Below, piece after piece: positions 17,878-47,640 of a DNA stretch of 64,000 bases. The DNA comes from a plasmid. The notes under the pieces were generated by a model that saw only the letters and a list, made by a program, of their open reading frames with translations, had not been told where the DNA came from and made no database searches. The DNA is taken from sequence record CP132319.1; one strand, written 5' to 3'. Each line of letters begins with the position of its first letter. Position 1 is the first letter of the stretch. A program made the translations under genes and the position numbers.

Positions 17878-20097
17878 TCATAGGGCCGCGCTTCTAAGCC
17901 TGAGCGAGTTGCCAATTACGCTCACCGACGACAGCGCCATGGCTGCCGCTGCGATGATCGGAGACAAGAGCAGCCCGAAAGACGGGTATAGAATACCGGC
18001 TGCCACTGGCACACCCGCCGCGTTGTAGATAAAGGCGAAGAACAGGTTTTGGCGAATATTTGCCATCGTTGCTCGGCTGAGCTGACGGGCACGTACAATT
18101 CCCTGTAGGTCGCCTTTCAGCAGGGTGACACCAGCACTTTCGATAGCAACGTCGGTACCGGTACCCATGGCGATGCCAACGTCGGCAGCTGCCAGGGCAG
18201 GAGCATCGTTGACACCGTCGCCCGCCATGGCAACGATTTTGCCCTCGCTTCTCAGTCTGGAAACAATCTTGCTTTTGTCTTCGGGAAGCACCTCTGCCTC
18301 TACTTCCGAAATCCCCAGACGACGTGCCACCGCAAGCGCCGTCGTCTTGTTGTCGCCAGTTAGCATCACCACCCTGACCCCTTCCGCGACAAGGTCCTTG
18401 ACGGCTTCCGGGGTTGTCGCCTTCACGGGGTCGGCGATAGCAAACAATCCCTCGACATGCCCATCGGCAGCCATGAAGATGACCGTTGCGCCCTCGTTTC
18501 GCAGTTCTTCGGCGTGAACTGTGACCGAGGATACGTCGATACTGTTTTCTTCCATGATCCGGTGGCTTCCGAGGATTAGCTTTTTGCCATTGACGACCCC
18601 CGTCACGCCCTTGCCCACCGGGCTGTCAAAGTCCTGAGCATCCCCAACGGCGATTCCGCGTTCTGTCGCCGCGTTGACAATAGCAAGGGCGAGCGGGTGT
18701 TCGCTCGACCTTTCAAGCGTCGCTGCCGTCTGGAGCAGGTCAGTTTCGGAGACACCATCTCGCGGAACGATAGCGGTTAATTTTGGCCGACCCTCGGTTA
18801 GGGTTCCGGTTTTATCGACTACGAGCGTATTGACCTTTTCGAACCGCTCAAGTGCCTCCGCGTTCTTGATCAGGACACCAAGCCCAGCACCTCGGCCAAC
18901 GCCGACCATAATCGACATGGGTGTAGCGAGGCCGAGCGCGCACGGGCAGGCGATAATCAAAACTGCGACAGCTGCAACAAGCCCATGGGCGAAGCGCGGC
19001 TCAGGGCCAATAAAGAACCAAACAAAGAAGGAGATGATCGCCACGGCGATGACTACCGGCACGAACCACCCGGAAACTTCGTCTGCCAGACGCTGGATAG
19101 GAGCCCGAGAACGCTGAGCCTCTGCAACCATTTTCACGATCTGGGCAAGCATGGTGTCCTTGCCGACCTTACCGGCTTCCATGATGAAGCCACCGGTCTG
19201 GTTCATCGTGCCTCCGATCAGCTTTGAACCAACTTCCTTTGTAACCGGCATCGATTCGCCGGTTATCATGGATTCGTCGATGGAGCTGCGACCTTCCAGC
19301 AGGGCACCATCGACCGGGATCTTTTCACCCGGCCGAACACGCAGGCGGTCTCCGACCGATACAGCGTCGAGGCCAATATCCTCGTCGCTACCGTCGTCGT
19401 TGACGCGCCTTGCGGTCTTTGGAGCCAGATCGAGAAGCGCACGTATAGCCCCCCCGGTCTGTTCCCGCGCCCGAAGCTCCAGTACCTGGCCAAGCAACAC
19501 GAGAACCGTGATCACCGCCGCCGCCTCGAAATAAACGGCGACTGCACCCTCGCTGGAACGAAATGTTTCCGGGAAGATACCCGGCATGATCGTCGCGACC
19601 ACGCTGTAAATCCAGGCGACGCCGGTGCCCATCGCAATGAGCGTAAACATGTTCAGGTGGCGGGTGATGATGGACTGCCAGCCTCGTTCAAAGAATGGCC
19701 AGCCGGCCCAAAGAACCACCGGTGTCGCCAAAACCAGCTGGACCCAGTTCGAGGTCTGTGGCCCGAGCACCATGTGCAGGTTCGTCAGGTGCCCGCCCAT
19801 TTCCAAAACAAGCACCGGCACAGACAGGATTAAACCGATCCAGAATCTGCGGGTCATGTCGGCCAGTTCGGGGCTTGGGCCCGTCGCGACCTCCGGTGTT
19901 TCCGGTTCCAGAGCCATGCCGCAGATTGGGCAGTTTCCCGGCCCTGGCTGACGAACTTGGGGATGCATCGGGCAGGTGTAAACGACACCCTCGACTTCAT
20001 CGACGGACGTTGCAGTCTTTAGTGGAACCACGTTCGATGAGTGATCATGGCCATGTTCGTGTCGATGGTGGGCATGCCCACGATGTTCGCTCGTCAT
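17878..20097 (-). CDS. Cu(I)-translocating P1B-type ATPase with His-rich N-terminus and CPxHPxx...CPICGM metal-binding domain
   Basis: Motifs TGES, CPC ([11 protein letters not shown]), [17 protein letters not shown]; 739 aa; lies 13 nt downstream of a multicopper oxidase gene. Confidence 0.9.
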
Positions 20098-23485: not shown

Positions 23486-25963
<2,478 letters not shown>

Positions 25964-34994: not shown

Positions 34995-35305
34995 AATATA
35001 GGGAAAAGCGCCCAGGATGGCAAGAATTTGGGGTCAGATGGCTAGTTTCCGATAAGGGTTACTTATCGGGGGTTAGACAACGGGGCACTTTTATGGCAGG
35101 TGTAGAACCCTAGTTGCCGTATAGCTTTCGCGTAGCAAATCGTTTACGATAAAAACAATGGCTTACGATCTCGCGAAATTGCCCATCTCCACCCTGCTGA
35201 AACCCGTTGCCGACGCCAGCTGTGGCTTTTAGCTCCCGATTTCAATTGAAGCGCCAAGCTAAAAAAGCGAGGGCCTGATTTTACCTAAGCTGTTCACGAA
35301 GGCCG

Positions 35306-35809
35306 TCAATTTGTAGGGAGCGATGAGGCACTTGGAGGGAGGTCGGCAGCATTGTCAGCAAGCGGATGCGCTTCGAGATCTGCGATCAGCGACTTCATTT
35401 CACCGATCTCCCGGACCTGAGCTTCGATGATCCCGTCAGCCAGCTTGCGCACCCGCGGATCTCTGATGTGCGCGCGTTCGCTGGTCATGATGGCGATGGA
35501 ATGATGGGGGATCATCGCCTTCATGTAGCTGACATCGTAGACGGTCTCCTGGCTGCGCACGAGCCAAAGGGACCCGGCAAAGACCAAAACGCTGACCGCG
35601 ACAATGACGGCATTGGCAGTCTTGTTCTTATACATTGACCACATGAAGCCGATCATGATGATCGCCATGACCGCGCCCATCAGTAGCGCCATCCACGTCC
35701 TGGTCTGGCTGTAGGTAACGTGATCGAGGGCATACGTATTCAGGTACATTAGACCAAACATGATCACCGTCGAGGTGACGATCATCGTGGCAAAGCGTCC
35801 ATAGGACAT
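35306..35809 (-). CDS. DUF305-family membrane-anchored protein
   Basis: Two N-terminal TM helices; DUF305 signature ...YMKAMIPHHSIAIMTSE (compare MIAHHMGAISMAE at 16912). Confidence 0.7.
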   Translation of the reverse strand: MSYGRFATMIVTSTVIMFGLMYLNTYALDHVTYSQTRTWMALLMGAVMAIIMIGFMWSMYKNKTANAVIVAVSVLVFAGSLWLVRSQETVYDVSYMKAMIPHHSIAIMTSERAHIRDPRVRKLADGIIEAQVREIGEMKSLIADLEAHPLADNAADLPPSASSLPTN

Positions 35810-35824
35810 GGGAATCTCCTTCCT

Positions 35825-36565
35825 CTACTTGATAAGCATCCAGACCGCCATCGCGACCATCATCAGGTTTTCAGTTAATGAGATGAAGCCTAAGGGGACA
35901 TTGCTGTCGCCGCCGACGCAGGCGCATTTCAGTTCACGGCGCTCAATGTAGACGGCCTTCAACACCGAAACGGCACCGATAGTCCCGATCACCAACGCGA
36001 CCGGGATAGCCAGCCACAACAGAAAGCCGGCGATCATCAGGATCCCGGCAAGCGCTTCCCCGAATGGATAGAGGTAGGCATAGCGGACCCAGCGCTGGGC
36101 CAGCAGGTCGTAGCCGAGGAACATGTTGGAGAAGCTCTCGACGTCCCGAAGCTTCAGGATCGCAAGTATACACATGGAAATCGCGATAAACCATTCTAAG
36201 GCACGAGCGGTTAGAACGTCGCTAAACGCCGCCCAACTGGCTGCGAGGGCCATCAGCGCGGCCATGGCAAACACCGCGATCACCGGCTGATAGGTGACAG
36301 CCTTTGGATCGCGAACGGTTTTGCCGAAATGACGAAGCAGATCGTCGTAGCCGCCGACCCGCTGCCCATCGATGAATGTCTGGGGTGTTGTCTCAACCTC
36401 GTGCTCGGCCTTGAAGGAATCGGTCTCTTCGCGGGTTTTCAGCCAGTTGTCGTCAACAGAGAAACCCTCGCGTTTCAGCAGATCGAGGGACTTCAAGCCA
36501 AACGGACAGATGTGGTCGGGCATGACCATCCGATAGATCGTCGCTCTGCGCGAATGAGCATTCAT
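35825..36565 (-). CDS. Glutaredoxin-domain / MauE(DoxX-like) membrane-domain fusion protein (thiol-disulfide oxidoreductase)
   Basis: N-terminal IYRMVMPDHICPFG thioredoxin-fold motif; C-terminal approximately 150 aa with four TM helices and ...CACVGG; overlaps the csoR stop. Confidence 0.65.
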   Translation of the reverse strand: MNAHSRRATIYRMVMPDHICPFGLKSLDLLKREGFSVDDNWLKTREETDSFKAEHEVETTPQTFIDGQRVGGYDDLLRHFGKTVRDPKAVTYQPVIAVFAMAALMALAASWAAFSDVLTARALEWFIAISMCILAILKLRDVESFSNMFLGYDLLAQRWVRYAYLYPFGEALAGILMIAGFLLWLAIPVALVIGTIGAVSVLKAVYIERRELKCACVGGDSNVPLGFISLTENLMMVAMAVWMLIK

Positions 36566-36584
36566 CCGATCACCTCTAATATCT

Positions 36585-36860
36585 CTAGCGCCTTGCGCGA
36601 TCGAACAGCTCGACGAGTTCGTCCAATTTCTGCTGTTGCTCACTCGCATCGCCGGACTTGATTGCATCCGCGACGCAGTGAGCCGCGTGATCACGAAGAA
36701 TCTCGCTCTCAGCTCGGCCGAGGGCTGCTTTCACTGCCTGGATCTGATGCAGGATGTCGATGCAATAGCGATCGTCAGACACCATTCGCGCCAAACCCTG
36801 GACCTGACCGGCAATCCGGTTTAACCGAACGATCTTGGCCCGCTTTCTGTCGCCGCACAT
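36585..36860 (-). CDS. csoR: CsoR/RcnR-family metal-sensing repressor
   Basis: 91 aa; ligand pattern ...YCIDILHQI... and ...HAAHC (Cys-His-Cys spacing typical of Cu(I)-CsoR). Confidence 0.75.
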   Translation of the reverse strand: MCGDRKRAKIVRLNRIAGQVQGLARMVSDDRYCIDILHQIQAVKAALGRAESEILRDHAAHCVADAIKSGDASEQQQKLDELVELFDRARR

Positions 36861-36992
36861 CGTTACCTCTCATACCCTAGGGGAGTATGTTCAACGATCG
36901 CGGTCCGCCATTGTTCCCTTACGACAGCGAAGACTTCGCCCGTACCGGCCCAAAGCGACGCCTAGGTTATGCAGTAAGGGCGAAAAGAGCGT

Positions 36993-38126
36993 TCAAAGCC
37001 CGGAGGCTTTGGTGAGGTTCACGCGGAAGCGATCACGCCGTCGCTGATAGCGTCGCGTCATCTCGGCCGAAGCATGGCCAAGCTGTTTCTGGACATAACG
37101 TTCGTCGACCTCGGCTGAAGAGGCGAGACCGGCGCGGAGGGAGTGACCGGAGAACTTGAAGGCGCGCTCGATCTCGCTGAGATTGCCGCGAACGCCGGCC
37201 GCCAGTGCGGTGCGCTTTACCAGCCGGGCGACCTCCTTGTCGTTCAGCCGCTCCGATCCGACAGCTTTCCCTTGCCCTGTCACGCGGCGAAAAAGGGGAC
37301 CGTGGGCCAGCCTGGCGAACTTGATCCACATCTCGATCGCGGCGACCGGGCAGGTCGCGTCAGACGAGCCGCGACCCACCTCAACCTCCCGCCATCCGGT
37401 TTTTCCGCGCAGGGTAACGAGCATCCCCTTGTCGAGGATTTCGATCCAGCCGCGCCCGTCTTCGGTCTGGTCTGCCTTCAGATCAAGGCCAACGATCTCG
37501 GAGCGGCGAAGACCACCGGCAAAGCCGACCAGCAACATGGCGCGGTCGCGCAGGCCGCGCAGCGAACCGCGGTCGAGCGTCTCGACCATGGCGATGATGT
37601 CTTCAGCCATGACCGCTTCCTTCTGCACCGGTGGCTTGGCATGGCTGTTGCGAATGCCAGCCATCACGGTGGCGATATGCCGGTCCTTGCGATCGAGCGA
37701 GAGGCCGCGCTGGGCATAGTTCCAGGAAAGCGAGGAGAGGCGTCGTTCGATGGTCGAGACGGAGTTCGCTTTCGCGCCCCGTTCAGCCGTGCCGGAAGCG
37801 CAGGCCGTAATATAAAGCCCTACAGTTTGCGGATGTGGGGGGAGGGGAGTGAGATTCGAGCGCCGGCACCAGGCTGAAAAATGCTTCCAATCGGCGGCAT
37901 AGGCTTTGCGCGTGTTGGCGGAACTGGCGGCTTCAACATAACCCCGGGCGCGATCAGCAAGGCTTGCAAGATGGGCGGGCGTCTGGTCCTGAATGGCGAG
38001 AGAGGGGAGGGGGCTATCGCCCGACACCCCCGGCGTGGAAACATCACGCTTCGGCGCCGTGCTGAGAGACGGCGCAGAGATCTCCTCGAAGTGATTTTCG
38101 GTTTTTTGCTCGATCATTTGGGCCAT
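36993..38126 (-). CDS. Tyrosine site-specific recombinase (phage integrase family; plasmid resolvase-like)
   Basis: C-terminal catalytic residues ...HSLRAGLA...LGHASAEMTRRY; 377 aa. Confidence 0.8.
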   Translation of the reverse strand: MAQMIEQKTENHFEEISAPSLSTAPKRDVSTPGVSGDSPLPSLAIQDQTPAHLASLADRARGYVEAASSANTRKAYAADWKHFSAWCRRSNLTPLPPHPQTVGLYITACASGTAERGAKANSVSTIERRLSSLSWNYAQRGLSLDRKDRHIATVMAGIRNSHAKPPVQKEAVMAEDIIAMVETLDRGSLRGLRDRAMLLVGFAGGLRRSEIVGLDLKADQTEDGRGWIEILDKGMLVTLRGKTGWREVEVGRGSSDATCPVAAIEMWIKFARLAHGPLFRRVTGQGKAVGSERLNDKEVARLVKRTALAAGVRGNLSEIERAFKFSGHSLRAGLASSAEVDERYVQKQLGHASAEMTRRYQRRRDRFRVNLTKASGL

Positions 38127-38233
38127 TTCTCTATTATGAGAAAAACATCCGATAATGCAAGATTATCGTTCGTTTTTATCTGTCGACGGGCGCGGCGGTT
38201 TATGCGCCAGATACTGGCTCAAAGCGCCGTCTT

Positions 38234-39205: not shown

Positions 39206-40033
39206 ATGGGACGGCGGCCACAATCGACCGAGGGGCTGGACACTGAACTGGCGGATCTGCCGCCGGAGTTGCGCTGGCGCGAATGGATGGGCCGGGTCGA
39301 GGCGGTGATTTTCGCGTCGTCCGAGCCGGTGAACCGCGAGACGCTGACGCAGTTGGTCGGGCGCGACTGCAGCATCGACCTGCTGATCGACGACATCCGC
39401 GACGAGCTGCGTGACCGGCCTTATGAGCTCGTCTCCGTGGCCGGCGGCTGGCAGCATCGGACCCGCATCCGGTTTGCTGATGCGATCCGCCGTGTCACCG
39501 GTGTCGAGCAGGAAGGACGCTCATTGTCGCAAACCGATCTGCTGGTGTTAGCAATAGTCGCCTATCACCAGCCGATCACCCGACACGAGATTTCCAAGAT
39601 CATCGGAAAGGAAGTCAGCCGTGATAGAGTTGCTCACATTCGCTCTTTGGGTTTTCTTTCCTCGGGTCCGCGCAGTCCGCAGCCGGGCGCTCCTTACACG
39701 CTGGTCACGACACGGACCTTCCTGTCACGCTTCGGGTTAGGGACTTTGCGCGACCTGCCGAACCTCGAATTGCTCGAAGATGCCGGCCTGCTGAGCAGGG
39801 ACAGGAGGTTCGATGGCGACATGCCGATCGCATCGGACGAACAGGACGAACAAGCCGACTTCGAGGACGACAAGCAGCGAGGACTACCAGGCTTCGGATC
39901 GCTGACCATTCACAGGCTTTGCCCGGATCCGGGAAAGGGGATTCAGGTTGAGAATCTAGATCTACGGGTATTGACCCTGCAGTGGCTACAGGCCGTAGCA
40001 CCCTTTCTTCATGCGAATCAGGGCTCGGACTAA
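39206..40033 (+). CDS. scpB: ScpB-family segregation and condensation protein B
   Basis: Winged-helix tandem ...VEAVIFASSEPV...LSQTDLLVLAIVAYHQPITRHEISKIIG... Confidence 0.75.
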   Translation: MGRRPQSTEGLDTELADLPPELRWREWMGRVEAVIFASSEPVNRETLTQLVGRDCSIDLLIDDIRDELRDRPYELVSVAGGWQHRTRIRFADAIRRVTGVEQEGRSLSQTDLLVLAIVAYHQPITRHEISKIIGKEVSRDRVAHIRSLGFLSSGPRSPQPGAPYTLVTTRTFLSRFGLGTLRDLPNLELLEDAGLLSRDRRFDGDMPIASDEQDEQADFEDDKQRGLPGFGSLTIHRLCPDPGKGIQVENLDLRVLTLQWLQAVAPFLHANQGSD

Positions 40034-40034
40034 A

Positions 40035-41096
40035 ATGATCGAGGCAATACTCCACCGGCTCGGGCCGCTCGTCTTGTTTGTGCTGCTTGTCGCCGGACTT
40101 AACGGCTGTACCACCATGAGCCTCGACGATATCGGCGATCCGTCGCCGAAAATTCCGGTCAAACTCGTCGGAGAGATGGCAAAGAAAGGGATGACGCCGG
40201 AGAGCCCAGTGCTGATACGGATCTTCAAACAAGAAAGCGAGCTCGAGATTTGGAAGCAGGATCGGACCGGTCGCTACGCACTTTTGAAGGTGTATCCGAT
40301 GTGCCGATGGTCAGGAAAACTCGGCCCGAAAACCCGGACCGGCGATCGGCAGGCGCCCGAAGGATTTTATCATGTCTCCACAGGCATGCTGAATCCCAAG
40401 TCGCAATTTTATCTATCGTTCAACCTTGGCTATCCGAACCGCCTCGAGGCGGCACTGAATTACACCGGCGAAGCTCTGATGGTCCACGGCGCTTGTTCTT
40501 CGTCGGGATGCTACGCGATGACCGACCAAGGTGTCGGCGAAATCTACGCCCTCGTGCACAGCGCACTCGCCGGTGGCCAAGACAAGTTTCAGGTGCAGGC
40601 ATATCCGTTTCGCATGACCGTGGAGAATATGGTGGCCAATCGCAGCGATCCGAACTTCGCGTTCTGGAAAAACCTGAAAGAAGGTTACGACGCCTTCGAA
40701 TTTTCCAAGCGGCAGCCAAAAGTCGCGGCGTGCAATCGTCGATATGTTTTCAACGCCGATTTCGACAGGGACCCTACCAACCCCCTTGCTGCCTGTCCCC
40801 CTCTTAAACAGGCTATAGATCCGACCCTTTCCGCCAAAGTTCAACAAGAGGATCAGAAACTGACCGCGCTGCTCGACAAGGATTCTCCTGCGACCGTGAC
40901 CGCCTATGCTGACGGTGGGATGCACTCCAGCTTCCGCGAACTGCTGAAGCAAAACGGCGCCGACAAGCTTGCCCAGAAAATCTCGACCATTAAGTACCCG
41001 ATCAGCCGTCCAGACGCGGCCTTGGCGGACCCTTACCAGGGCGAGCCTTGGAAACCGGCGCTTAGCCGTTCCGAAAAGGACAGAGACGCCGATTGA
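40035..41096 (+). CDS. L,D-transpeptidase (YkuD domain) lipoprotein
   Basis: Lipobox LNGCTT; catalytic motif MVHGACSSSGCYAMTD (H...C). Confidence 0.8.
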   Translation: MIEAILHRLGPLVLFVLLVAGLNGCTTMSLDDIGDPSPKIPVKLVGEMAKKGMTPESPVLIRIFKQESELEIWKQDRTGRYALLKVYPMCRWSGKLGPKTRTGDRQAPEGFYHVSTGMLNPKSQFYLSFNLGYPNRLEAALNYTGEALMVHGACSSSGCYAMTDQGVGEIYALVHSALAGGQDKFQVQAYPFRMTVENMVANRSDPNFAFWKNLKEGYDAFEFSKRQPKVAACNRRYVFNADFDRDPTNPLAACPPLKQAIDPTLSAKVQQEDQKLTALLDKDSPATVTAYADGGMHSSFRELLKQNGADKLAQKISTIKYPISRPDAALADPYQGEPWKPALSRSEKDRDAD

Positions 41097-41342
41097 TGGG
41101 GCAGTTCTTCACCTGAAGTTCAATTTGCGCGAGCATGGAACGCGCTCAACGAGGGAACGATTGTCTTTTATCTCGGCTACGCTGGCTCTTCACGTTTGTG
41201 GCGCGGTTTCGTCTAGGCGTATTTTCTTGCCCAGGTGATATCCATCAGGTCCTCGACCGGGACGGGGAAGTTCTTCAAGGCTGAATGTAAACGCTCCACA
41301 TCGCCAGCATGTTCTTTAGTCACGCTTCGGCAAATTGGCGAT

Positions 41343-41381
41343 TGACCCTGTAGCCGCTACAGGCTGTAGACCTAAGCTCGA
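41343..41381 (+). promoter_or_regulatory. MerR(PbrR/CadR)-type promoter: -35 TTGACC plus dyad CCTGTAGccgCTACAGG, 19-nt spacer
   Basis: Same motif as at 43394 and 46474-46504; 200 nt upstream of lspA. Confidence 0.55.
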
Positions 41382-41586
41382 ACGAATCTGACGAAGGAAG
41401 CCTATCCAAGAGATGCGGCGGGGTCCCATTTCGCGGCATTCAGTCCGTCGAGCAATCTTTGTTTGGCGCCAGCCGAGAAGCGGGACTAACTGCAGCGACG
41501 GCGCGGGGCGACATCGGCGCGCGGTGTGGGCGCCTCGCGCTCGACTTCCACTAACGATCAGGCCCAGCCAATGAGGGGAAATCATA

Positions 41587-42108
41587 TTGCCGACTAGTTC
41601 CGTTAGACATCGAACCGTCTGGATTGCGATCGCTTTTGTCCTCGCGCTTCTTTTCGACATCGCGACAAAGTGGCTGATCGTTAACGTCGTCATGGTCCCG
41701 CCGCGGACGATTAAGCTTGTGAGCTACTTCAACCTGACACTGGGTTTCAATACCGGCGTCAGTTTCGGAATGTTCAGCGATATCTTCTTTGAGCGTCCGT
41801 TATTGCTGGCCACCATAAAGACCGTCATAACCATCGGGCTGATCGTCTGGGCAATGCGAGCGGATCGGACGTTGGAAGCGACTGCGCTCGGTTTGATTGC
41901 CGGTGGGGCGGCCGGAAATATTCTTGATCGCGTGTGGCATGGCGCCGTCACCGACTTTCTCGATTTTCATATCGGGACTTGGCATTGGCCCGCTTTCAAC
42001 ATGGCAGATGTCGCGATCACCATCGGGGCAGCGCTGCTTATCGCAGGCTCGATCTTTTCTTTTGAGCCCGCACGCACACCCGGACCGTCCAGTACCGAGA
42101 AGCGCTGA
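41587..42108 (+). CDS. lspA: Lipoprotein signal peptidase II (PbrC-like)
   Basis: 173 aa; four TM helices; conserved ...FNMADVAITIGAALL... region. Confidence 0.85.
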   Translation: MPTSSVRHRTVWIAIAFVLALLFDIATKWLIVNVVMVPPRTIKLVSYFNLTLGFNTGVSFGMFSDIFFERPLLLATIKTVITIGLIVWAMRADRTLEATALGLIAGGAAGNILDRVWHGAVTDFLDFHIGTWHWPAFNMADVAITIGAALLIAGSIFSFEPARTPGPSSTEKR

Positions 42109-42193
42109 ATGAAGACGTTGTCGGGTTTCAGCCGCACGCGACGCTGGACCAGTGCATCGGCTTTCTATGTGCAGAAATAATGGGAAAACTTGA

Positions 42194-42799
42194 ATGAGCG
42201 AGAAACACCGCGAGGACGAAATACGGCTCGACGCGAGAAATGCCTCCGAGCGAACGACGCTTGTCTGGGTCCTTGCCATCAATCTGTTGCAAGTGATCGT
42301 CGCCGGCGTCGTTGGCGTCTTCGCTGACTCGACCGGTCTTCTGGGAGCAGCCCTCGATAATATGGGCGACGCTGGCGTTTATGCCATCAGCCTTTACGCC
42401 GTCGGTCGGACGGTAGTGGCAAAGGTGCGTGTTGCGCGCCTGTCCGGAATCCTGCTGATCGCCCTGGGTCTGGCACTTTTCGTCGAGGTAGGGCGTCGGT
42501 TTTTCGTAGGCGCCGAGCCGATTGGCTTGGCCATGATCATTACCGCCTTCATCAATGCCGCGCTGAATGTCATTTGCCTGAAGCTTCTTCGATCGCATCG
42601 CGATCAGGGCGTTCATCTGAAGGCGTCGTGGATTTTCACGACGAACGATATGATCGCCAATGCCGGCATTGTCGTTTCGGGCGCAGCGGTTATGTTCTTC
42701 GCTTCTCCTTATCCGGATCTGGTTATCGGGGTGTTGGTTGCAGGCATCGTCCTGCGGGGTGGCTGGGAAATCCTGGAAGAGGCGAAGGACGCATCTTAG
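42194..42799 (+). CDS. Cation-diffusion-facilitator-like membrane protein, TM domain only (no cytoplasmic C-terminal domain)
   Basis: Six predicted TM helices; CDF-like ...DSTGLLGAALDNMGDAG and ...NDMIANAGIVV motifs; 201 aa. Confidence 0.6.
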   Translation: MSEKHREDEIRLDARNASERTTLVWVLAINLLQVIVAGVVGVFADSTGLLGAALDNMGDAGVYAISLYAVGRTVVAKVRVARLSGILLIALGLALFVEVGRRFFVGAEPIGLAMIITAFINAALNVICLKLLRSHRDQGVHLKASWIFTTNDMIANAGIVVSGAAVMFFASPYPDLVIGVLVAGIVLRGGWEILEEAKDAS

Positions 42800-42982
42800 C
42801 GGCCTGCAATGTAGGAGATCGGCGTTCATTGCAGTTCACGACGCTGGTCGGCAATTCGCCTGCCGCCACAGACGCATTGGAACGAGGGCCTCAAACAGTC
42901 GAATGCGCTCTCTGCCTGCGCCGGCCACCCACTTCCCAGCCGCCGCTTTACATCAAAGCGGCTTTTGAATCTGTGTTGGCCC

Positions 42983-43390
42983 CTAATGCTTCGGCGAAAG
43001 AGAATCGATGATGCGGCAGTCGGCGACCGTTCCACAACTACACTGGTCGATAATACTGTCTAGTTCCGCCTTCAACGCCTGCAGGTCGCGGATCTTGCGC
43101 TCGACCTCGGCGCGATGCTCGTTGGCAATTTCGTCGACCGCCATGCATGACTGGTCACGGTCGTCACTCAGCCTCAGAAGACCGCGTACCTGATCGAGGG
43201 AAAATCCAAGGTCGCGCGCGCGACGGATGAAGCTCAGTCGATTCAGGTGCGCATGGTCATAGGCGCGGTAGTTGCCCTCGGTGCGGCCCGGTTCGGGCAG
43301 CAAACCGTTCTTTTCATAAAAGCGGATCGTTTCAACCTTGGTGCCGGTTTTCTTGGCAAGATACCCGATTGTCAGAATGTTTGGCGACAT
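42983..43390 (-). CDS. MerR-family Cd/Pb/Zn-responsive regulator (CadR/PbrR/ZntR-like)
   Basis: HTH LTIGYLAKKTGTKVETIRFYE; metal-binding Cys (C79-like ...DQSCMA and C-terminal CSCGTVADCRII); divergent from the P-type ATPase. Confidence 0.8.
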   Translation of the reverse strand: MSPNILTIGYLAKKTGTKVETIRFYEKNGLLPEPGRTEGNYRAYDHAHLNRLSFIRRARDLGFSLDQVRGLLRLSDDRDQSCMAVDEIANEHRAEVERKIRDLQALKAELDSIIDQCSCGTVADCRIIDSLSPKH

Positions 43391-43393
43391 GGC

Positions 43394-43424
43394 TTGACCC
43401 TGTAGTTGCTACAGGCCTCATGTA
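43394..43424 (+). promoter_or_regulatory. MerR(PbrR/CadR)-type promoter of the Zn/Cd/Pb ATPase gene: -35 TTGACC plus dyad CCTGTAGttgCTACAGG
   Basis: Perfect 7-bp dyad in the spacer; about 35 nt upstream of the ATPase start. Confidence 0.65.
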
Positions 43425-43456
43425 AGGCGCCAGTTCGTAATTGTCGAGGTGACGTC

Positions 43457-45592
43457 ATGGCTTCCAGCGCGTTGAAATTGAAGATCAAGGGCATGGATTG
43501 CGCTGCCTGCGCAATGAAGATTGAAAACGCGATGAAGCGCTTGCCAGGCGTCAGCGACATCAATGTCAATTACAGTCAGGAAAGCATGGTCATCATGCTG
43601 GATAAGGACAGGACCTCGCCGCAGACTGTCGAGGACAAGATCAAAGGGCTCGGCTTCACCCCAATTTCAGCGGGCGCGGACAATCAAGCTGGTGCCAGCC
43701 AGCTCCCGGACTACCACGACCAGGCATGGTGGAAGGGTAAGAAGGGGCGTCTCGTCATCTTCACTGGCGCGATGTTTGCAGTTGCCTGGAGCATCGCCCA
43801 CGTATCTCCGGACTGGGGTCAGATCGCTTACTCGGTAGCGGCGCTGATCGCCATCGTTCCGTTCGCAAGACGTGCCTTCGTCGGTGCTGTCTCCGGAACG
43901 CCGTTTAGCATCGAAACGCTGATGACGGTTGCCGCGCTCGGGGCGTTGCTGATTGGGGCCGCCGAGGAGTCGGCGGTCGTAATCCTGCTGTTTGCCGTTG
44001 GCGAGCTTCTCGAAACCATCGCGGCCGGCCGCGCCCGGGCTGGTATCAAGGCATTGATCGATCTTGTCCCAAGGACTGCCTTTCGCGAGCGCGATGGCGT
44101 GGTCGAGAAGGTTGCAGTAGAGGAACTGGCGATCGACGACATAGTCGTCGTGCGGCCCGGCGATCGTGTTCCCTCCGATGGCAAAGTCACGCAGGGCTTT
44201 TCCGAACTCAACGAGGCTCCGGTGACAGGTGAGTCCGTTCCGGTCGCCAAGAACGTCGGCGACAAGGTCTATGCCGGCAGCATCAACACCAATGGCGAGC
44301 TTCGGGTGGCGATCAGTCATGTCGCGGCCGACAATACAATCTCGCGCATCATTCATATGGTCGAGGAAGCGCAGTCGTCGAAGGCACCAATGGCACGGCT
44401 GATCGATCGCTTCAGCGCCTGGTATACGCCGGCGGCTATGGTGGTGGCGGCGCTGGTCATCGTCGTGCCGCCGATCTTCTTCGGCGGCGAGTGGGCGACG
44501 TGGATCTACCGTGGCCTCTCCACGCTCCTGATCGCCTGCCCCTGTGCGCTGGTCATCTCCACGCCGGCGGCCATAGCGTCCGGACTTGCGGCCGGCGCTC
44601 GCAAGGGTCTGCTTATCAAGGGCGGCGCGGCACTTGAGACGCTCGGAAAGGTCAAGACCGTCGCCTTCGACAAGACAGGAACGCTGACCCGCGGCCGACC
44701 GCAGGTCACGGATGTGTTGGCAATTGTCGGGACAGAGGCCGATGTGCTGGCCCGCGCGGCCGCCGTCGAACGGAACAGCAGCCATCCGCTAGGCGTCGCG
44801 ATTGGTGAAGCGGCGGTCGCAAAAGGCTTATCTGTGCCGGCAAGCTTCGGCGGTGCCAAGGCAACGCCCGGAAAAGCGGTTACTGCGCGGTTGAAGAACG
44901 GCTTCGTCTCCGTCGGGTCTCCCCGATTTGCCGCCGAGCAGGCCGTACTCGATGACGAATTTGCCCGGCGGATCACCTACCTTGAGGAAGAAGGAAAGAC
45001 GGTCGTCGTTCTGATGATGAACGGCAAGATTGAGGGCCTGATCGCGCTCAGGGACGAGCCGCGGGACGACGCCGCAACTGCCATCCGGCATCTGCAGGAT
45101 ATCGGCGTCAAAACTATCATGCTCACCGGCGACAATCAGCGCACGGCAATAGCGATAGGATCGGCGCTCGGACTGGACGTGAAGGCGGAACTACTTCCGG
45201 ACGCCAAGCTTGCCGAGATCTCGCGCCTCAAGACGCAAGCGCCCATCGCCATGATCGGCGACGGTATCAATGACGCTCCGGCGCTCGCCACCGCTTCGGT
45301 CGGGGTGGCAATGGGCGGAGGAACCGATGTCGCGCTGGAAACCGCCGACGCCGCGCTGCTTCGCGACAAGGTTATGGGAGTGGCCGATCTCATTGCCCTC
45401 TCAAAGGCGACGCTTGGCAACATCTGGCAAAATATCGGGCTCGCTCTTGGTCTCAAGGTCATTTTCCTCGGCACGACGCTTTTCGGTGTTACCACGCTTT
45501 GGATGGCGATTCTGGCTGATACGGGGGCGACGGTCCTGGTAACAGCCAATGCACTTCGCCTTCTTCGCCATCGCCGCCGTGATATCGAGTAG
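43457..45592 (+). CDS. Zn/Cd/Pb-translocating P1B-type ATPase (ZntA/CadA/PbrA-like)
   Basis: One HMA domain (GMDCAACAMKIE); CPC (ACPCALVISTP); DKTGTLT; [10 protein letters not shown]. Confidence 0.9.
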   Translation: MASSALKLKIKGMDCAACAMKIENAMKRLPGVSDINVNYSQESMVIMLDKDRTSPQTVEDKIKGLGFTPISAGADNQAGASQLPDYHDQAWWKGKKGRLVIFTGAMFAVAWSIAHVSPDWGQIAYSVAALIAIVPFARRAFVGAVSGTPFSIETLMTVAALGALLIGAAEESAVVILLFAVGELLETIAAGRARAGIKALIDLVPRTAFRERDGVVEKVAVEELAIDDIVVVRPGDRVPSDGKVTQGFSELNEAPVTGESVPVAKNVGDKVYAGSINTNGELRVAISHVAADNTISRIIHMVEEAQSSKAPMARLIDRFSAWYTPAAMVVAALVIVVPPIFFGGEWATWIYRGLSTLLIACPCALVISTPAAIASGLAAGARKGLLIKGGAALETLGKVKTVAFDKTGTLTRGRPQVTDVLAIVGTEADVLARAAAVERNSSHPLGVAIGEAAVAKGLSVPASFGGAKATPGKAVTARLKNGFVSVGSPRFAAEQAVLDDEFARRITYLEEEGKTVVVLMMNGKIEGLIALRDEPRDDAATAIRHLQDIGVKTIMLTGDNQRTAIAIGSALGLDVKAELLPDAKLAEISRLKTQAPIAMIGDGINDAPALATASVGVAMGGGTDVALETADAALLRDKVMGVADLIALSKATLGNIWQNIGLALGLKVIFLGTTLFGVTTLWMAILADTGATVLVTANALRLLRHRRRDIE

Positions 45593-45693
45593 GAGCAACT
45601 GGAAAGGAGGCCGATGCCCTGCTTTCCGGATCTACAGCGCTTTCCGAGAAATTCGAAATTCATCAATCGACCCTCGTTAAGGGGGTCGCCAAA

Positions 45694-46008
45694 ATGCGTC
45701 AGTTCGAAGATGCGATCGAAATAATGCCGGGAGAAACCCTAGCTTTGAGGGCGGGCGCATCGCACATCATGTTTGCGAAGCTTAGGAAGCAACTGGCGGC
45801 AGGGGAGCGCTTCGCCGTCAGTCTCAACTTCAAGAACGCTGGCTCGACAACCGTGGACTTGGCTGTCCAGGGGCTCGGGGTTTCCAAGCCCGCCAAAGCC
45901 CATGACGACGCAGGCCGAAGGCTGACTGACCGTGCTGAAGATTGTCCGCACCGCTGCTTAGTTGCCGGCGCGATTCCTGTCGCGATCTTAATCGGCGCCT
46001 GGCCCTGA
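45694..46008 (+). pseudogene. Fragment resembling the C-terminal half of a PCu(A)C/DUF461 periplasmic copper chaperone (N-terminus missing)
   Basis: ...LRAGASHIMFAKLRKQLAAGERFAVSLNFKNAGSTTVDLAVQ matches the PCuAC H(M)x10M and beta-sandwich end, but no signal peptide or first half is present. Confidence 0.35.
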
Positions 46009-46211
46009 TGCCGCCGCCCGCGGGGCGGGAGCGTGCAACCTGCGATCGCCACAGGTCTCCAGGTGCTCTTATCCTCTCGACGGCCTGTCTGTCAGGTCAG
46101 GAACTCGCAATAGAACCAATTCGTGCTGAGCGAGGTCGAAACCGAGAGACAGCCGCGGTGTCAGGCCGGATGTAGAAGAGGTCGACCGGCCTGACGGAGA
46201 CGTCGGGGCGC

Positions 46212-46421
46212 TCAGTTCGAGACCGTGTATCCGAGGTCCACAACCGTCTCCTGCAGTATGTCGGCGCCGATGATCTCGGGATCGATCTGAACGATCGCCC
46301 TAGTGCTATCGAGTGAAACGTTGACGTCCAGCACGCCGGGAAGCGCGCGTAGGCCCTTCTCGACCTTTGCGACACAGCTCGCGCAGTCCATTCCGACCAC
46401 ATTCATTTCTACAGTTTCCAT
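46212..46421 (-). CDS. HMA-domain metallochaperone (CopZ/MerP-like)
   Basis: METVEMNVVGMDCASCVAKVEK; about 69 aa; RBS AAAGGA. Confidence 0.8.
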   Translation of the reverse strand: METVEMNVVGMDCASCVAKVEKGLRALPGVLDVNVSLDSTRAIVQIDPEIIGADILQETVVDLGYTVSN

Positions 46422-46473
46422 CTGAAATCCTTTCAGGACTAAGCTGACGTGAGTTAAGTTTCCCAACGCGTCA

Positions 46474-46504
46474 AAACTTTGCACCCTGTAGCGGCTGCAG
46501 GGTC
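46474..46504 (-). promoter_or_regulatory. MerR(PbrR/CadR)-type promoter: -35 TTGACC plus dyad CCCTGCAGccgCTACAGGG, driving the HMA chaperone
   Basis: Third copy of the CTGTAG/CTACAG box; TTGACC on the minus strand. Confidence 0.55.
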
Positions 46505-46791
46505 AACCCAAAGGGCTCACGGTTCCTAGAAATTTTTGGGCCCTTCGATCATTTGCCGCCAAGCCAATGTCCGGGAGGCATCCGCAGCCAATGAAGCGCC
46601 GTTGATCCAGTACCACTCTGCATCGTGCTACGTACCGAGTTAAAAACCTAGGAACGCAGATCAGAGCTATAAAGCCCCAGATTGAGGTGTTTAGCAGGGC
46701 CTCTGCCCTGCACGCTTAATCAGATGGTGGTGGAACCGGGTCACGCTTCATACCGGATGCTATGCGATATGTTTGCCGGCGGGCATTGTGA

Positions 46792-47640
46792 TTACTCTGG
46801 TGTGACCGGCAGTGCTCGCTTGTGTGCGGTCGCTGTGTACATGGTGAGGATTCGCTCGCGAGCTGGTTCCGTGATCACCTTACCCTCGAGAAAATCGTCA
46901 ATCTCGTCGTAGGTGACGCCGTAAGCCTCCTCGTCAGGACGCAGCGGCGCATCGCTTTCTAGGTCGGCGGTCGGCACCTTGTCGATCAGTTCCTGTGGCG
47001 CTCCGACGTGCTTTGCAATTGCACGGACGCGGCGCTTGGTAAGACCCGAAAGTGGAAGGATATCCGCAGCGCCGTCTCCGAATTTCGTGAAGAACCCCAT
47101 CAGCGCCTCGGCGGCGTGATCCGTACCGATCACCAAGCCGCCGACGGCGCCCGCCAACGCGTATTGCGCAATCATGCGCTGACGTGCCTTGATATTGCCG
47201 AGGTGGAAATCGACCCTCTCTACCTCAAACAATTCTCCTGCCTGACGACGGATCTCTGCAAGCATGGCATCGGCAGCCGGTTTGATGTCGATGGTGACGG
47301 TTCGATCGGGACGGATCGCCGCTAAGGCTTTCTGCGCATCGGCTTCATCAGCCTGAACGCCATACGGGAGCCGCACTGCGACGAATTCCGCTTTGTGGCC
47401 GTGCTCGCGCAGGCGGTTTGAAGCGGTCTGGGCCAGGATGGCGGCGGTCAGGGAATCCACGCCGCCGCTGATGCCAAGGACAAAGGCCCGTAATGCCCTA
47501 GTGCGAAGGTAATCGGCCAGAAACGCGATCCGACGTTCTGTCTCTGCTGCTGCATCGAAGCTCGGTGCGACGCCGAGTGCGTGGATGATATCGGCCTGTT
47601 GATGCAGCAAGGTCGTTCCTTCGTTTGACGAACGCATCAA
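46792..47640 (-). CDS. nadE: NH3-dependent NAD+ synthetase
   Basis: PP-loop SGGVDS in ...VLGISGGVDSLTAAILAQ; 282 aa. Confidence 0.85.
   Translation of the reverse strand: MMRSSNEGTTLLHQQADIIHALGVAPSFDAAAETERRIAFLADYLRTRALRAFVLGISGGVDSLTAAILAQTASNRLREHGHKAEFVAVRLPYGVQADEADAQKALAAIRPDRTVTIDIKPAADAMLAEIRRQAGELFEVERVDFHLGNIKARQRMIAQYALAGAVGGLVIGTDHAAEALMGFFTKFGDGAADILPLSGLTKRRVRAIAKHVGAPQELIDKVPTADLESDAPLRPDEEAYGVTYDEIDDFLEGKVITEPARERILTMYTATAHKRALPVTPE

Follow-up and report, generated by a model that had tools for sequence, protein, structure and literature searches.

A plasmid-borne Zn/Cd/Pb-type resistance locus with four predicted MerR-type promoters, two of them ahead of genes for envelope enzymes

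Introduction

In Pseudomonas putida and P. aeruginosa, the CadR-CadA divergon (CadR structures 6jgv and 6jgx) encodes a MerR-family sensor divergently from a Zn/Cd/Pb P1B ATPase, and the 19-bp spacer behind TTGACC contains a palindrome of CTATAG/CTGTAG type (PMC1526738). Permina et al. found that Brucella has a palindrome of CadR type, and in their analysis CadR and PbrR share a branch and have similar signals (PMC1526738). Those chromosomal counterparts that have been studied in Rhizobiales are named ZntR and respond to Zn and Cd (PMC10800456). Here we analyse a related locus within a 64,000-nt stretch of plasmid DNA (record CP132319.1; hereafter the window), in which genes for a MerR-family sensor, a P1B-2 ATPase, signal peptidase II (lspA), a short CDF-family transporter, a small HMA protein and a DpaA/YafK-like protein lie among four copies of a CadR/PbrR-type operator. 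We consider it probable that the locus is a plasmid-borne resistance regulon for divalent soft metals of the Zn/Cd/Pb type, in which one activator of the CadR/PbrR clade would serve four promoters and four transcription units.

That lspA is linked to cad and pbr modules is already known. On pMOL30 of Cupriavidus metallidurans, the lead-resistance operon pbrTRABCD places a P1B ATPase and the signal peptidase II PbrC under one control with a MerR-type sensor that belongs to the same branch (PMC1526738). The cadR-CDF-lspA module of Tn6018 type, carried by plasmids of Acinetobacter and Enterobacteriaceae, is treated in the literature as a determinant of resistance to cadmium and zinc (PMC6863613). 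In Mesorhizobium metallidurans, a signal peptidase II gene near cadA showed more than 3-fold induction by Zn, and its product was compared with PbrC (PMC3668242).

Results

Four operator copies with MerR-type promoter spacing

The operator pattern TTGACCCTGYAGNNGCTACAGG, that is, TTGACC with CCTGYAG-N3-CTACAGG, matches the window exactly at four places: 39971-39992, 41342-41363 and 43394-43415 on the plus strand and 46485-46506 on the minus strand. The initial annotation had listed the last three, each no more than 1-2 nt away from the exact match, and had counted the motif three times; these sites are real, and the copy at 39971 had been overlooked. The number of matches expected by chance is zero, as none of 100 dinucleotide-preserving shuffles contains one even when up to two mismatches are allowed. 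With up to five mismatches, no copy beyond the four is found in the 64 kb, and the near-identical 119-kb plasmid of Shinella sumterensis carries no further copy.

At 41342 and 43394, the 7-3-7 inverted repeat has no mismatch, and at 39971 and 46506 it has one (CTGCAG for CTGTAG). At each of the four sites, a -10-like hexamer lies exactly 19 bp past the -35 box (Table 1). The MerR-type spacing proposed earlier is thus supported by the layout in the window, and also by the -10 consensus of 116 sites elsewhere, described below. A sigma-70 scan with spacers of 16-18 nt did not pick up the four promoters, in line with their 19-nt spacers. At the third site, TACATG, the reverse complement of CATGTA, could serve together with TCGACA (43443-43438) as the promoter of the merR gene.

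Three metagenomic or metagenome-assembled relatives, 88% identical over the locus (L144-L146), retain all four operators, including operator 4, at orthologous places with diverged flanks. In pairwise alignments, the -35 box and the repeat are unchanged save for the central triplet or a symmetric change from CTGTAG to CTATAG, and the leaders are rich in substitutions and indels. Operator 1 is base-for-base identical in L145 between different flanks, and the changes in operator 2 are confined to the central triplet and the bases after the repeat. In a third lineage (L139), whose DpaA/YafK-like gene is 82% identical, a diverged operator copy lies directly upstream of that gene.

A scan of one genome per species with the pattern TTGAYCCTGYAGNNNCTACAG returned at least 120 loci, and the first gene downstream of each site was classed by blastx; the counts that follow refer to the matches listed. 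At 116 distinct sites, positions 26-31, which lie outside the pattern, give the consensus YATAWT, corresponding to an exact 19-bp spacer, and the bases G22, G23 and T24, left free by the pattern, complete the palindrome. The most frequent hexamers at positions 26-31 in other divergons are CATGTA, CATATA and CATATG; near-palindromic -10 hexamers of this kind would fit divergent promoters. A divergent merR-family gene adjoins 85 of the 122 sites. The first downstream gene encodes a short CDF at 44 sites, a P1B ATPase at 23, MerT at 22, and MerC and an HMA protein at two each. We take the four window sites to be operators because of this geometry in other genomes, the merR context and the footprint of conservation in the relatives.

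A regulator of the CadR/PbrR clade

The regulator matches Pfam MerR (E = 1.9e-14), MerR_1 (3e-20) and MerR-DNA-bind (1.7e-23), all past the cut-offs, and so comprises an N-terminal winged helix-turn-helix and a dimerisation helix. The closest solved structures found by phmmer are P. putida CadR (6jgv, E = 1.4e-30) and the PbrR-type 5gpe (3.1e-30). In the phmmer alignment to 6jgv, Cys82, Cys117 and Cys125 correspond to C77, C112 and C119 of CadR, and Cys119 is extra. Regulators encoded beside ATPases at the scanned sites are up to 75% identical to the window protein and those beside short CDFs up to 70%, and both groups share the loop QC-x-x-G-T-V-A-[DE]-C-R-I-I, whereas regulators beside merT are 36-48% identical and have the loop C-x-G-x3-P-x-C-P. 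A C-x-C variant of the loop is confined, among the regulators compared, to the ATPase-adjoining group. On sequence grounds we assign the regulator to the CadR/PbrR clade and read it, most readily, as a sensor of Zn/Cd/Pb type; the sequence does not single out one of the three metals as the inducer.

Compared with the CadR-CadA divergon, the window regulator has no histidine-rich C-terminal tail, carries the additional Cys119 and scores below the cut-off of the CadR-PbrR model TIGR02047, and the locus has four operators instead of one and would include envelope enzymes in its regulon. The ZntR-ZntA systems of Agrobacterium tumefaciens, Brucella abortus and B. ovis belong to the same bacterial order and share the divergent genes for a MerR-type regulator and a P1B-2 ATPase, with 9-nt inverted repeats between them (PMC10800456). 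Unlike the window locus, with which we compare them by their published description only, they are chromosomal and have a single target.

Table 1 Features of the locus (positions in the 64,000-nt window)
Feature	Position	Strand	Details
Promoter-operator 1	39971..40001	+	-35 TTGACC 39971-39976; 19-nt spacer with CCTGCAG-TGG-CTACAGG; -10 TAGCAC 39996-40001; exact match
DpaA/YafK-like gene, L,D-transpeptidase fold	40035..41096	+	353 aa; alternative ATG 40011; predicted lipoprotein (Cys25)
Deletion scar	41103..41299		between DpaA-like gene and lspA operator; relatives have a 415-aa cytochrome P450 gene here
Promoter-operator 2	41342..41372	+	TTGACC; CCTGTAG-CCG-CTACAGG in 19-nt spacer; -10 TAGACC; exact match
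Untranslated lspA leader	41373..41586	+	~205 nt; length kept in L145, ~70% identity with indels
lspA, signal peptidase II	41587..42108	+	173 aa; TTG start behind GAGGGG; Pfam Peptidase_A8 1.4e-34
CDF-family transporter without C-terminal domain	42194..42799	+	201 aa; six helices; Pfam Cation_efflux residues 26-197
Terminator-like hairpin	42942..42972	+	between converging CDF and merR genes; 8-bp stem with 5 G-C pairs, then TTTTGAATCT; consensus match only
MerR-family metal sensor	42983..43390	-	135 aa; Pfam MerR, MerR_1, MerR-DNA-bind; Cys82, Cys117, Cys119, Cys125
Promoter-operator 3	43394..43424	+	TTGACC; CCTGTAG-TTG-CTACAGG; -10 CATGTA; merR/ATPase divergent region
P1B-2 (Zn/Cd/Pb) P-type ATPase	43457..45592	+	711 aa; one N-terminal HMA domain
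PCu(A)C copper-chaperone remnant	45694..46008	+	Pfam PCuAC profile positions 57-109 of 109; PGAP gene 45619-46008
Small HMA (CopZ-like) protein	46212..46421	-	69 aa; GMDCASC motif; Pfam HMA 1.9e-15
Promoter-operator 4	46476..46506	-	TTGACC 46506-46501; CCTGCAG-CCG-CTACAGG(GT); -10 CAAAGT 46481-46476

The ATPase and the short CDF transporter

The gene assignments made initially (lspA, a 201-aa CDF membrane domain, divergent merR and ATPase genes and a small HMA protein) held in Pfam and NCBIfam searches. The ATPase scores 522 bits on TIGR01512 (ATPase-IB2_Cd; cut-off 313.5) and 833 bits on PRK11033, and does not reach the ZntA equivalog cut-offs. It contains the motifs CAAC (15), CPC (361) of transmembrane helix 4 (TM4), DKTGT (405), HP (443), GDGIND (601), LGLK (664) with the conserved Lys of TM5, and ADTG (687) with the Asp of TM6.

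The CDF protein scores 48.2 bits on PF01545, above the cut-off of 26.6, and 48.9 bits on TIGR01297, below the cut-off of 82.35. Its C-terminal domain is absent: the protein ends four residues past the Pfam match, and the AlphaFold model (pLDDT 84, six helices) stops with helix 6. A Foldseek search with this model returned only the membrane domains of ZnT1, ZnT7, ZnT8 and YiiP (probability 1.00, TM-score 0.73-0.79). The single sequence gave no match against solved structures, and a family profile was needed; its alignment to ZnT8 pairs D55 with H106, D59 with D110, F148 with H220 and D152 with D224, and N151 is also part of the site. The canonical four-residue CDF site (D/H-D in TM2, H-D in TM5) is not present, as Phe148 occupies the position of the TM5 histidine.

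This site is shared by the subfamily. Among the best 125 representatives covering the site, 70 have D-D-F-N-D and 27 D-D-C-N-D; the C-terminal domain is missing from 121, and 59 are extended at the N-terminus. When 1.84 billion cluster representatives were searched, 1832 clusters had a match at E<=0.001. Every close homologue has a length of 201-228 aa, and a relative is encoded on 711 plasmid records. The transporters of cadR-CDF-lspA modules on Klebsiella and Acinetobacter plasmids have D-D-F-N-D as well. Since D-D-F-N-D is the family norm, the 201-aa protein is a typical member of a common family and not a crippled one. It had been introduced as an extra, minimal member of the regulon; its predicted membership stands, but it is not unusual, given that a short CDF is the most frequent first gene behind the operator (44 of 122) and that the Tn6018-type transporter is of the same kind. 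Full-text literature phrase searches on CDFs without a C-terminal domain returned no match.

The Tn6018-type module, in which cadR is divergent from the CDF gene, resembles the window locus in combining cadR, a CDF without C-terminal domain and lspA in one unit, and its transporter shares the D-D-F-N-D site and 46% identity over the membrane domain. It differs in that its transporters carry N-terminal extensions of 100-230 aa and the module has no ATPase. Moreover, lspA directly follows the CDF gene in the module, whereas in the window it lies just before it, and the pair has its own operator apart from the regulator gene.

lspA and its leader

The LspA protein scores 121.1 bits on TIGR00077 (cut-off 73.95) and contains the catalytic-Asp motifs GNILDR (110) and FNMAD (137). 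No Rfam family matches at E<=1 over 39800-46800, and the fold energy of the lspA leader does not differ from that of shuffled sequence (z -0.30). A riboswitch or attenuator in the leader was dropped, as there is no Rfam match and folding is no better than in shuffled sequence. The leader was also considered as a remnant of the ATPase or P450 gene; blastn and tblastx against the relatives match the operator alone.

The DpaA/YafK-like gene

The product of the gene behind operator 1 scores 212.4 bits on the NCBIfam model LdtF_DpaA_YafK (NF040599), under its cut-off of 365, and its family profile matches E. coli DpaA (8ikr) with an E-value of 7.9e-67. The catalytic His151 and Cys159, and Ala161 at Cys+2, are invariant in the alignment; Ala or Asn at Cys+2, instead of Arg, marks DpaA-like amidases over transpeptidases (PMC8263019). 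All of the 13 homologues compared keep Cys25 behind L-x-[GA], the window copy having the less usual LNGC, so the protein is predicted to be a lipoprotein and is likely a substrate of LspA. The family has more than 7900 homologues, mostly core genes of Rhizobiaceae, with 62-70% identity. An AlphaFold model built from a 13-row alignment reached a pLDDT of 54 and was not used for a fold search.

The protein has the YkuD-like fold, the catalytic His/Cys and the Ala at Cys+2 in common with E. coli DpaA (YafK/LdtF), which detaches Braun's lipoprotein from peptidoglycan. In contrast to that enzyme, it is predicted to be a lipoprotein, its C-terminus is longer by ~100 residues, it has five additional cysteines, its gene lies behind a metal-sensor operator, and its score is below the equivalog cut-off. 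Rhizobiales are not known to have Lpp, so its substrate would have to differ from that of E. coli DpaA. The E. coli enzyme is inhibited by copper with an IC50 of ~0.1 mM (PMC8263019).

Upstream, a ScpB-like open reading frame (ORF; 39206-40033) overruns operator 1. The PGAP gene in the near-identical Shinella plasmid ends at the equivalent of 39905, and one indel separates the two sequences.

The same genes behind the operator in other bacteria

The genes of the window units recur together elsewhere; in the gene orders below, LDT stands for a gene of the L,D-transpeptidase fold (DpaA/YafK-like). Behind one operator, two Methylobacterium genomes have merR / ATPase-lspA-LDT-ccdA and Roseomonas rosea has merR / ATPase-lspA-ccdA-CDF. 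Agrobacterium pAtCFBP6624 has the order P450-MAPEG-operator-ATPase-lspA-ccdA-bacA-CDF-LDT, and ten places read around the closest CDF relatives have operator-MAPEG-operator-ATPase-lspA-ccdA-bacA-CDF, with no LDT. The CDF protein of the MAPEG-ATPase-lspA-ccdA-bacA-CDF operon is on record on 324 contigs. A Tn3-family element of Roseibium carries ATPase-CDF-PCuAC-SCO-ccdA-lspA, and a Sinorhizobium meliloti plasmid carries merR / HMA-CDF fusion followed by LDT, and also ATPase-lspA-CDF. A DpaA-like gene lies inside metal operons in L047, L049 and L142. The placement of lspA and the short CDF under a shared operator, as first annotated, is backed both by the conservation of the orthologous operator and by their presence in one operon with the ATPase in distant relatives.

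The alphaproteobacterial island operon (L126-L135 and L142, including the cadA region of Mesorhizobium metallidurans) has the same operator type and nadE on its flank, and its CDF and lspA products are 84% and 67% identical to the window proteins. Unlike the window locus, it encodes an ATPase of ~1020 aa, only 38% identical, has CcdA, BacA, MAPEG and P450 genes, all absent at the window locus, and is governed by one or two operators per long operon as opposed to four short units.

Several further observations were made in these genomes. In the Roseibium element (L005, 3596-3720), two complete operators stand back to back ~100 bp apart, facing a dsbB-thioredoxin-merR operon and an ATPase operon. 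The S. meliloti fusion (L140, 7874-8710) is a 278-aa HMA and CDF protein without C-terminal domain, encoded behind an operator with a DpaA-like gene next to it. On Agrobacterium pAtCFBP6624 (L002, 7150-7260), the orthologous HMA gene by nadE has a degenerate operator, TTGACCTCGTAGTTACTCCGGGG, with four changes in the repeat. Genes for PEMT/ICMT-family methyltransferases recur right behind the operator or beside the short CDF (L013, L053, L080, L109 and L120), and MAPEG and cytochrome P450 genes recur in island operons.

Rearrangement of the locus and its plasmid

The 88%-identical relatives have the gene order ScpB-LDT-P450-lspA-CDF-merR(-)-ATPase-PCuAC-SCO-HMA(-)-nadE(-). Relative to them, the P450 gene and the entire SCO1/SenC gene have been lost from the window, and its PCu(A)C gene is missing the 5' part (window 41103-41299 and 45592-46130). 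The first of these segments stands in for 3428-5029 of L145, with no similarity between the two. The PCu(A)C remnant is the C-terminal half of the domain, where the relatives have a 168-aa gene followed by the SCO gene. By these comparisons, the locus derives, through rearrangement and partial decay, from an island operon that is widespread in Alphaproteobacteria, P450-MAPEG-ATPase-lspA-ccdA-bacA-CDF-LDT.

Plasmid unnamed6 of Shinella sumterensis strain 1760953 (NZ_CP132308.1), a 119-kb repABC plasmid, matches the locus at 99.9% identity and encodes a single regulator of the window type and, in addition, a CueR. The sole large difference lies at window 35266-38149 (~2.9 kb), where NZ_CP132308.1 has ~6.3 kb with integrase, Mu-type transposase, TniB and recombinase genes, and the window therefore represents a close variant of this plasmid. 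Two more P1B ATPase genes are found in the window at 18031-19473 and 23618-25138 (-); in the related plasmid they lie beside cueR, multicopper oxidase and Cus/Czc-type RND genes, which makes the replicon one with resistance genes for several metals (Cu, As, Zn/Cd/Pb).

Discussion

In the regulon that we propose, the regulator dimer would bind CCTGYAG-N3-CTACAGG, which fills the over-long 19-bp spacer between TTGACC and a weak -10 hexamer. In the absence of metal, the regulator would keep the promoter shut; metal bound at Cys82 and at Cys117 and Cys125 of the partner subunit would untwist the spacer, and RNA polymerase would start. Untwisting of the spacer is the established MerR mechanism, which we extend here to the window regulator. 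The four units would be the gene for the DpaA/YafK-like lipoprotein; lspA with the gene for the CDF without C-terminal domain; the P1B-2 ATPase gene, divergent from the regulator gene, whose own promoter would overlap the operator; and the gene for the small HMA protein. The ATPase and the CDF would clear metal from the cytoplasm, and the HMA protein would buffer metal or hand it over. LspA and the DpaA-like enzyme may keep lipoprotein maturation and the tethering of the outer membrane to peptidoglycan going as thiol-seeking metal builds up in the periplasm. Copper is known to poison catalytic cysteines of the kind found in the DpaA-like enzyme, and the protein would itself depend on LspA if it is, as predicted, a substrate.

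Several points weigh against this interpretation. The regulator scores 131.2 bits on TIGR02047 (CadR-PbrR), below the cut-off of 151.45; this is still its best model, with CueR (128.8) and MerR (120.9) near. The -10 hexamers are weak, with T at position 6 in CAAAGT only. The pattern TTGAYCCTGYAGNNNCTACAG also lies upstream of merT or merC at 24 of the 122 sites listed (loci L006-L125, e.g. L029, L085, L087 and L112), and in the bacteria scanned the operator string alone evidently does not separate Hg sensors from Zn/Cd/Pb sensors. As the operator is shared with merT and merC genes, neither the metal nor exclusive control by the window regulator can be read from the DNA, and a chromosomal paralogue could also act on the four sites. 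The ~205-nt lspA leader has no recognisable function, with no Rfam match and no conserved ORF. Finally, the roles suggested for LspA and the DpaA-like enzyme derive from gene linkage and from the copper inhibition of E. coli DpaA.

Among the alternatives, the one that fares best is pbr-type lead resistance, with a PbrR-like sensor answering mainly to Pb(II) and LspA acting as PbrC does in lead-phosphate precipitation; we consider it unlikely. The regulator matches 5gpe as well as it matches CadR, lspA lies behind an operator, and the closest CDF relatives are encoded in operons with BacA, which like PbrB is an undecaprenyl-pyrophosphate phosphatase. The comparison with PbrC has also been made previously for Mesorhizobium (PMC3668242). 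However, no BacA, PAP2, PbrT-like or PbrD-like gene was found in the window or among the annotated genes of the plasmid. In tblastn searches, BacA (L126 query), CcdA and MAPEG had no match in the window or the plasmid; the plasmid's annotated genes include no PAP2/UppP gene, in a PLSDB gene table that omits pseudogenes; and PbrT and PbrD are not in the plasmid annotation, no sequence search having been made with either. The window loop is C117-x7-C125, and that of 5gpe is one residue longer in the alignment; in PbrR, whose cysteines are numbered Cys113 and Cys122, the spacing is likewise longer. The ATPase is of the general Zn/Cd/Pb P1B-2 type, and a response to Zn is the sole expression result available from a related rhizobial cluster (PMC3668242).

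The description of the locus as a 'pbr-like lead' locus is therefore to be kept in part. A P1B ATPase and a signal peptidase II are encoded under a PbrR-type operator, and the analogy has a real basis in ancestry, as the closest CDF relatives lie in ATPase-lspA-ccdA-bacA-CDF operons. The phosphatase is another matter: the BacA search and the annotation, with no PAP2 gene, gave no candidate for a pbrB missing from the locus elsewhere on the replicon. 'Lead' does not follow either, as the regulator is equally near to CadR and to the PbrR-type 5gpe and falls below the CadR-PbrR cut-off, and the operator also precedes merT and merC. Relative to pbrTRABCD, the window locus has no detected PbrB-type phosphatase and no annotated PbrT or PbrD, and has instead a CDF, an HMA protein and a DpaA-like enzyme; the island relatives have BacA as the phosphatase, and none was found at the window locus. 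As judged from gene content, 'pbr-like' holds only loosely.

Less probable again is that only the divergent merR/ATPase site works and that the other three are promoter fragments carried along in rearrangement. The locus is indeed rearranged and decayed, with P450 and SCO lost and PCuAC truncated, the -10 hexamers at the other three sites are poor, and the operator at the orthologous HMA promoter of the Agrobacterium pAt plasmid is degenerate. Nevertheless, all three are intact, stand before genes in the right orientation and with the right spacing, and are conserved in the 88%-identical relatives although neighbouring bases have changed. Furthermore, in other genomes the genes behind them share operons with the ATPase.

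A regulon answering Hg(II) under a true MerR is very unlikely. This reading could draw on the merT and merC genes behind 24 of the 122 operators listed and on the 121 bits that the regulator scores on the MerR model. We reject it on regulator similarity and loop motif, since the merT-adjoining regulators are only 36-48% identical and have another loop, whereas the ATPase- and CDF-adjoining ones reach 70-75% and share the loop of the window protein; in addition, merT, merP and merA were not detected among the genes examined at the locus. That the repeats, which put four nearly identical palindromes into 6.6 kb of mosaic plasmid sequence, are a dispersed palindromic element, such as a recombination or transposition site, and not operators is scarcely credible and is rejected on promoter geometry and synteny: every copy is joined to TTGACC and a -10-like hexamer at 19 bp and is aimed at a gene, 85 of the 122 listed instances lie in merR divergons, there are no flanking repeats, the related plasmid has transposase genes only at a distance of several kb on the upstream side, and the copies sit in syntenic places in relatives and not at rearrangement junctions.

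The proposed system would work in the manner of a MerR regulon of CadR/PbrR/ZntR type, with components from known families. MerR regulons with several promoters are already known, as are the linkage of lspA to metal modules and CDFs that lack the C-terminal domain. To these, the Zn/Cd/Pb-type regulon proposed here would add, modestly, a four-promoter layout and the apparent conservation of lspA and a DpaA-like enzyme as regulon members. It offers a compact, testable case with one MerR sensor and four promoters. For annotation, a 200-aa 'cation transporter' in such a setting would be a regular member of cadR modules, in which D-D-F-N-D is normal for the family, and the operator alone does not reveal the metal.

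The locus places LspA and a DpaA/YafK-like protein, an enzyme of the cell wall that is seldom thought of in connection with metal resistance, in a predicted Zn/Cd/Pb regulon, and the linkage is conserved across Rhizobiaceae, Methylobacterium and Roseomonas. We tentatively suggest that alphaproteobacterial soft-metal islands may routinely carry metal-inducible spare envelope enzymes, namely LspA and a DpaA-like amidase here, and BacA, CcdA and DsbB in relatives, because exported Zn, Cd or Pb would poison thiol-dependent lipoprotein maturation and tethering. The DpaA-like lipoprotein might then be a true resistance determinant, whose loss would lead to metal-specific envelope defects. If the envelope enzymes do matter for tolerance, resistance would consist of pumping together with the replacement or protection of cysteine-dependent steps of envelope assembly, and the occurrence of lspA in cad and pbr modules, which has been noted for a long time without an explanation, would then make sense.

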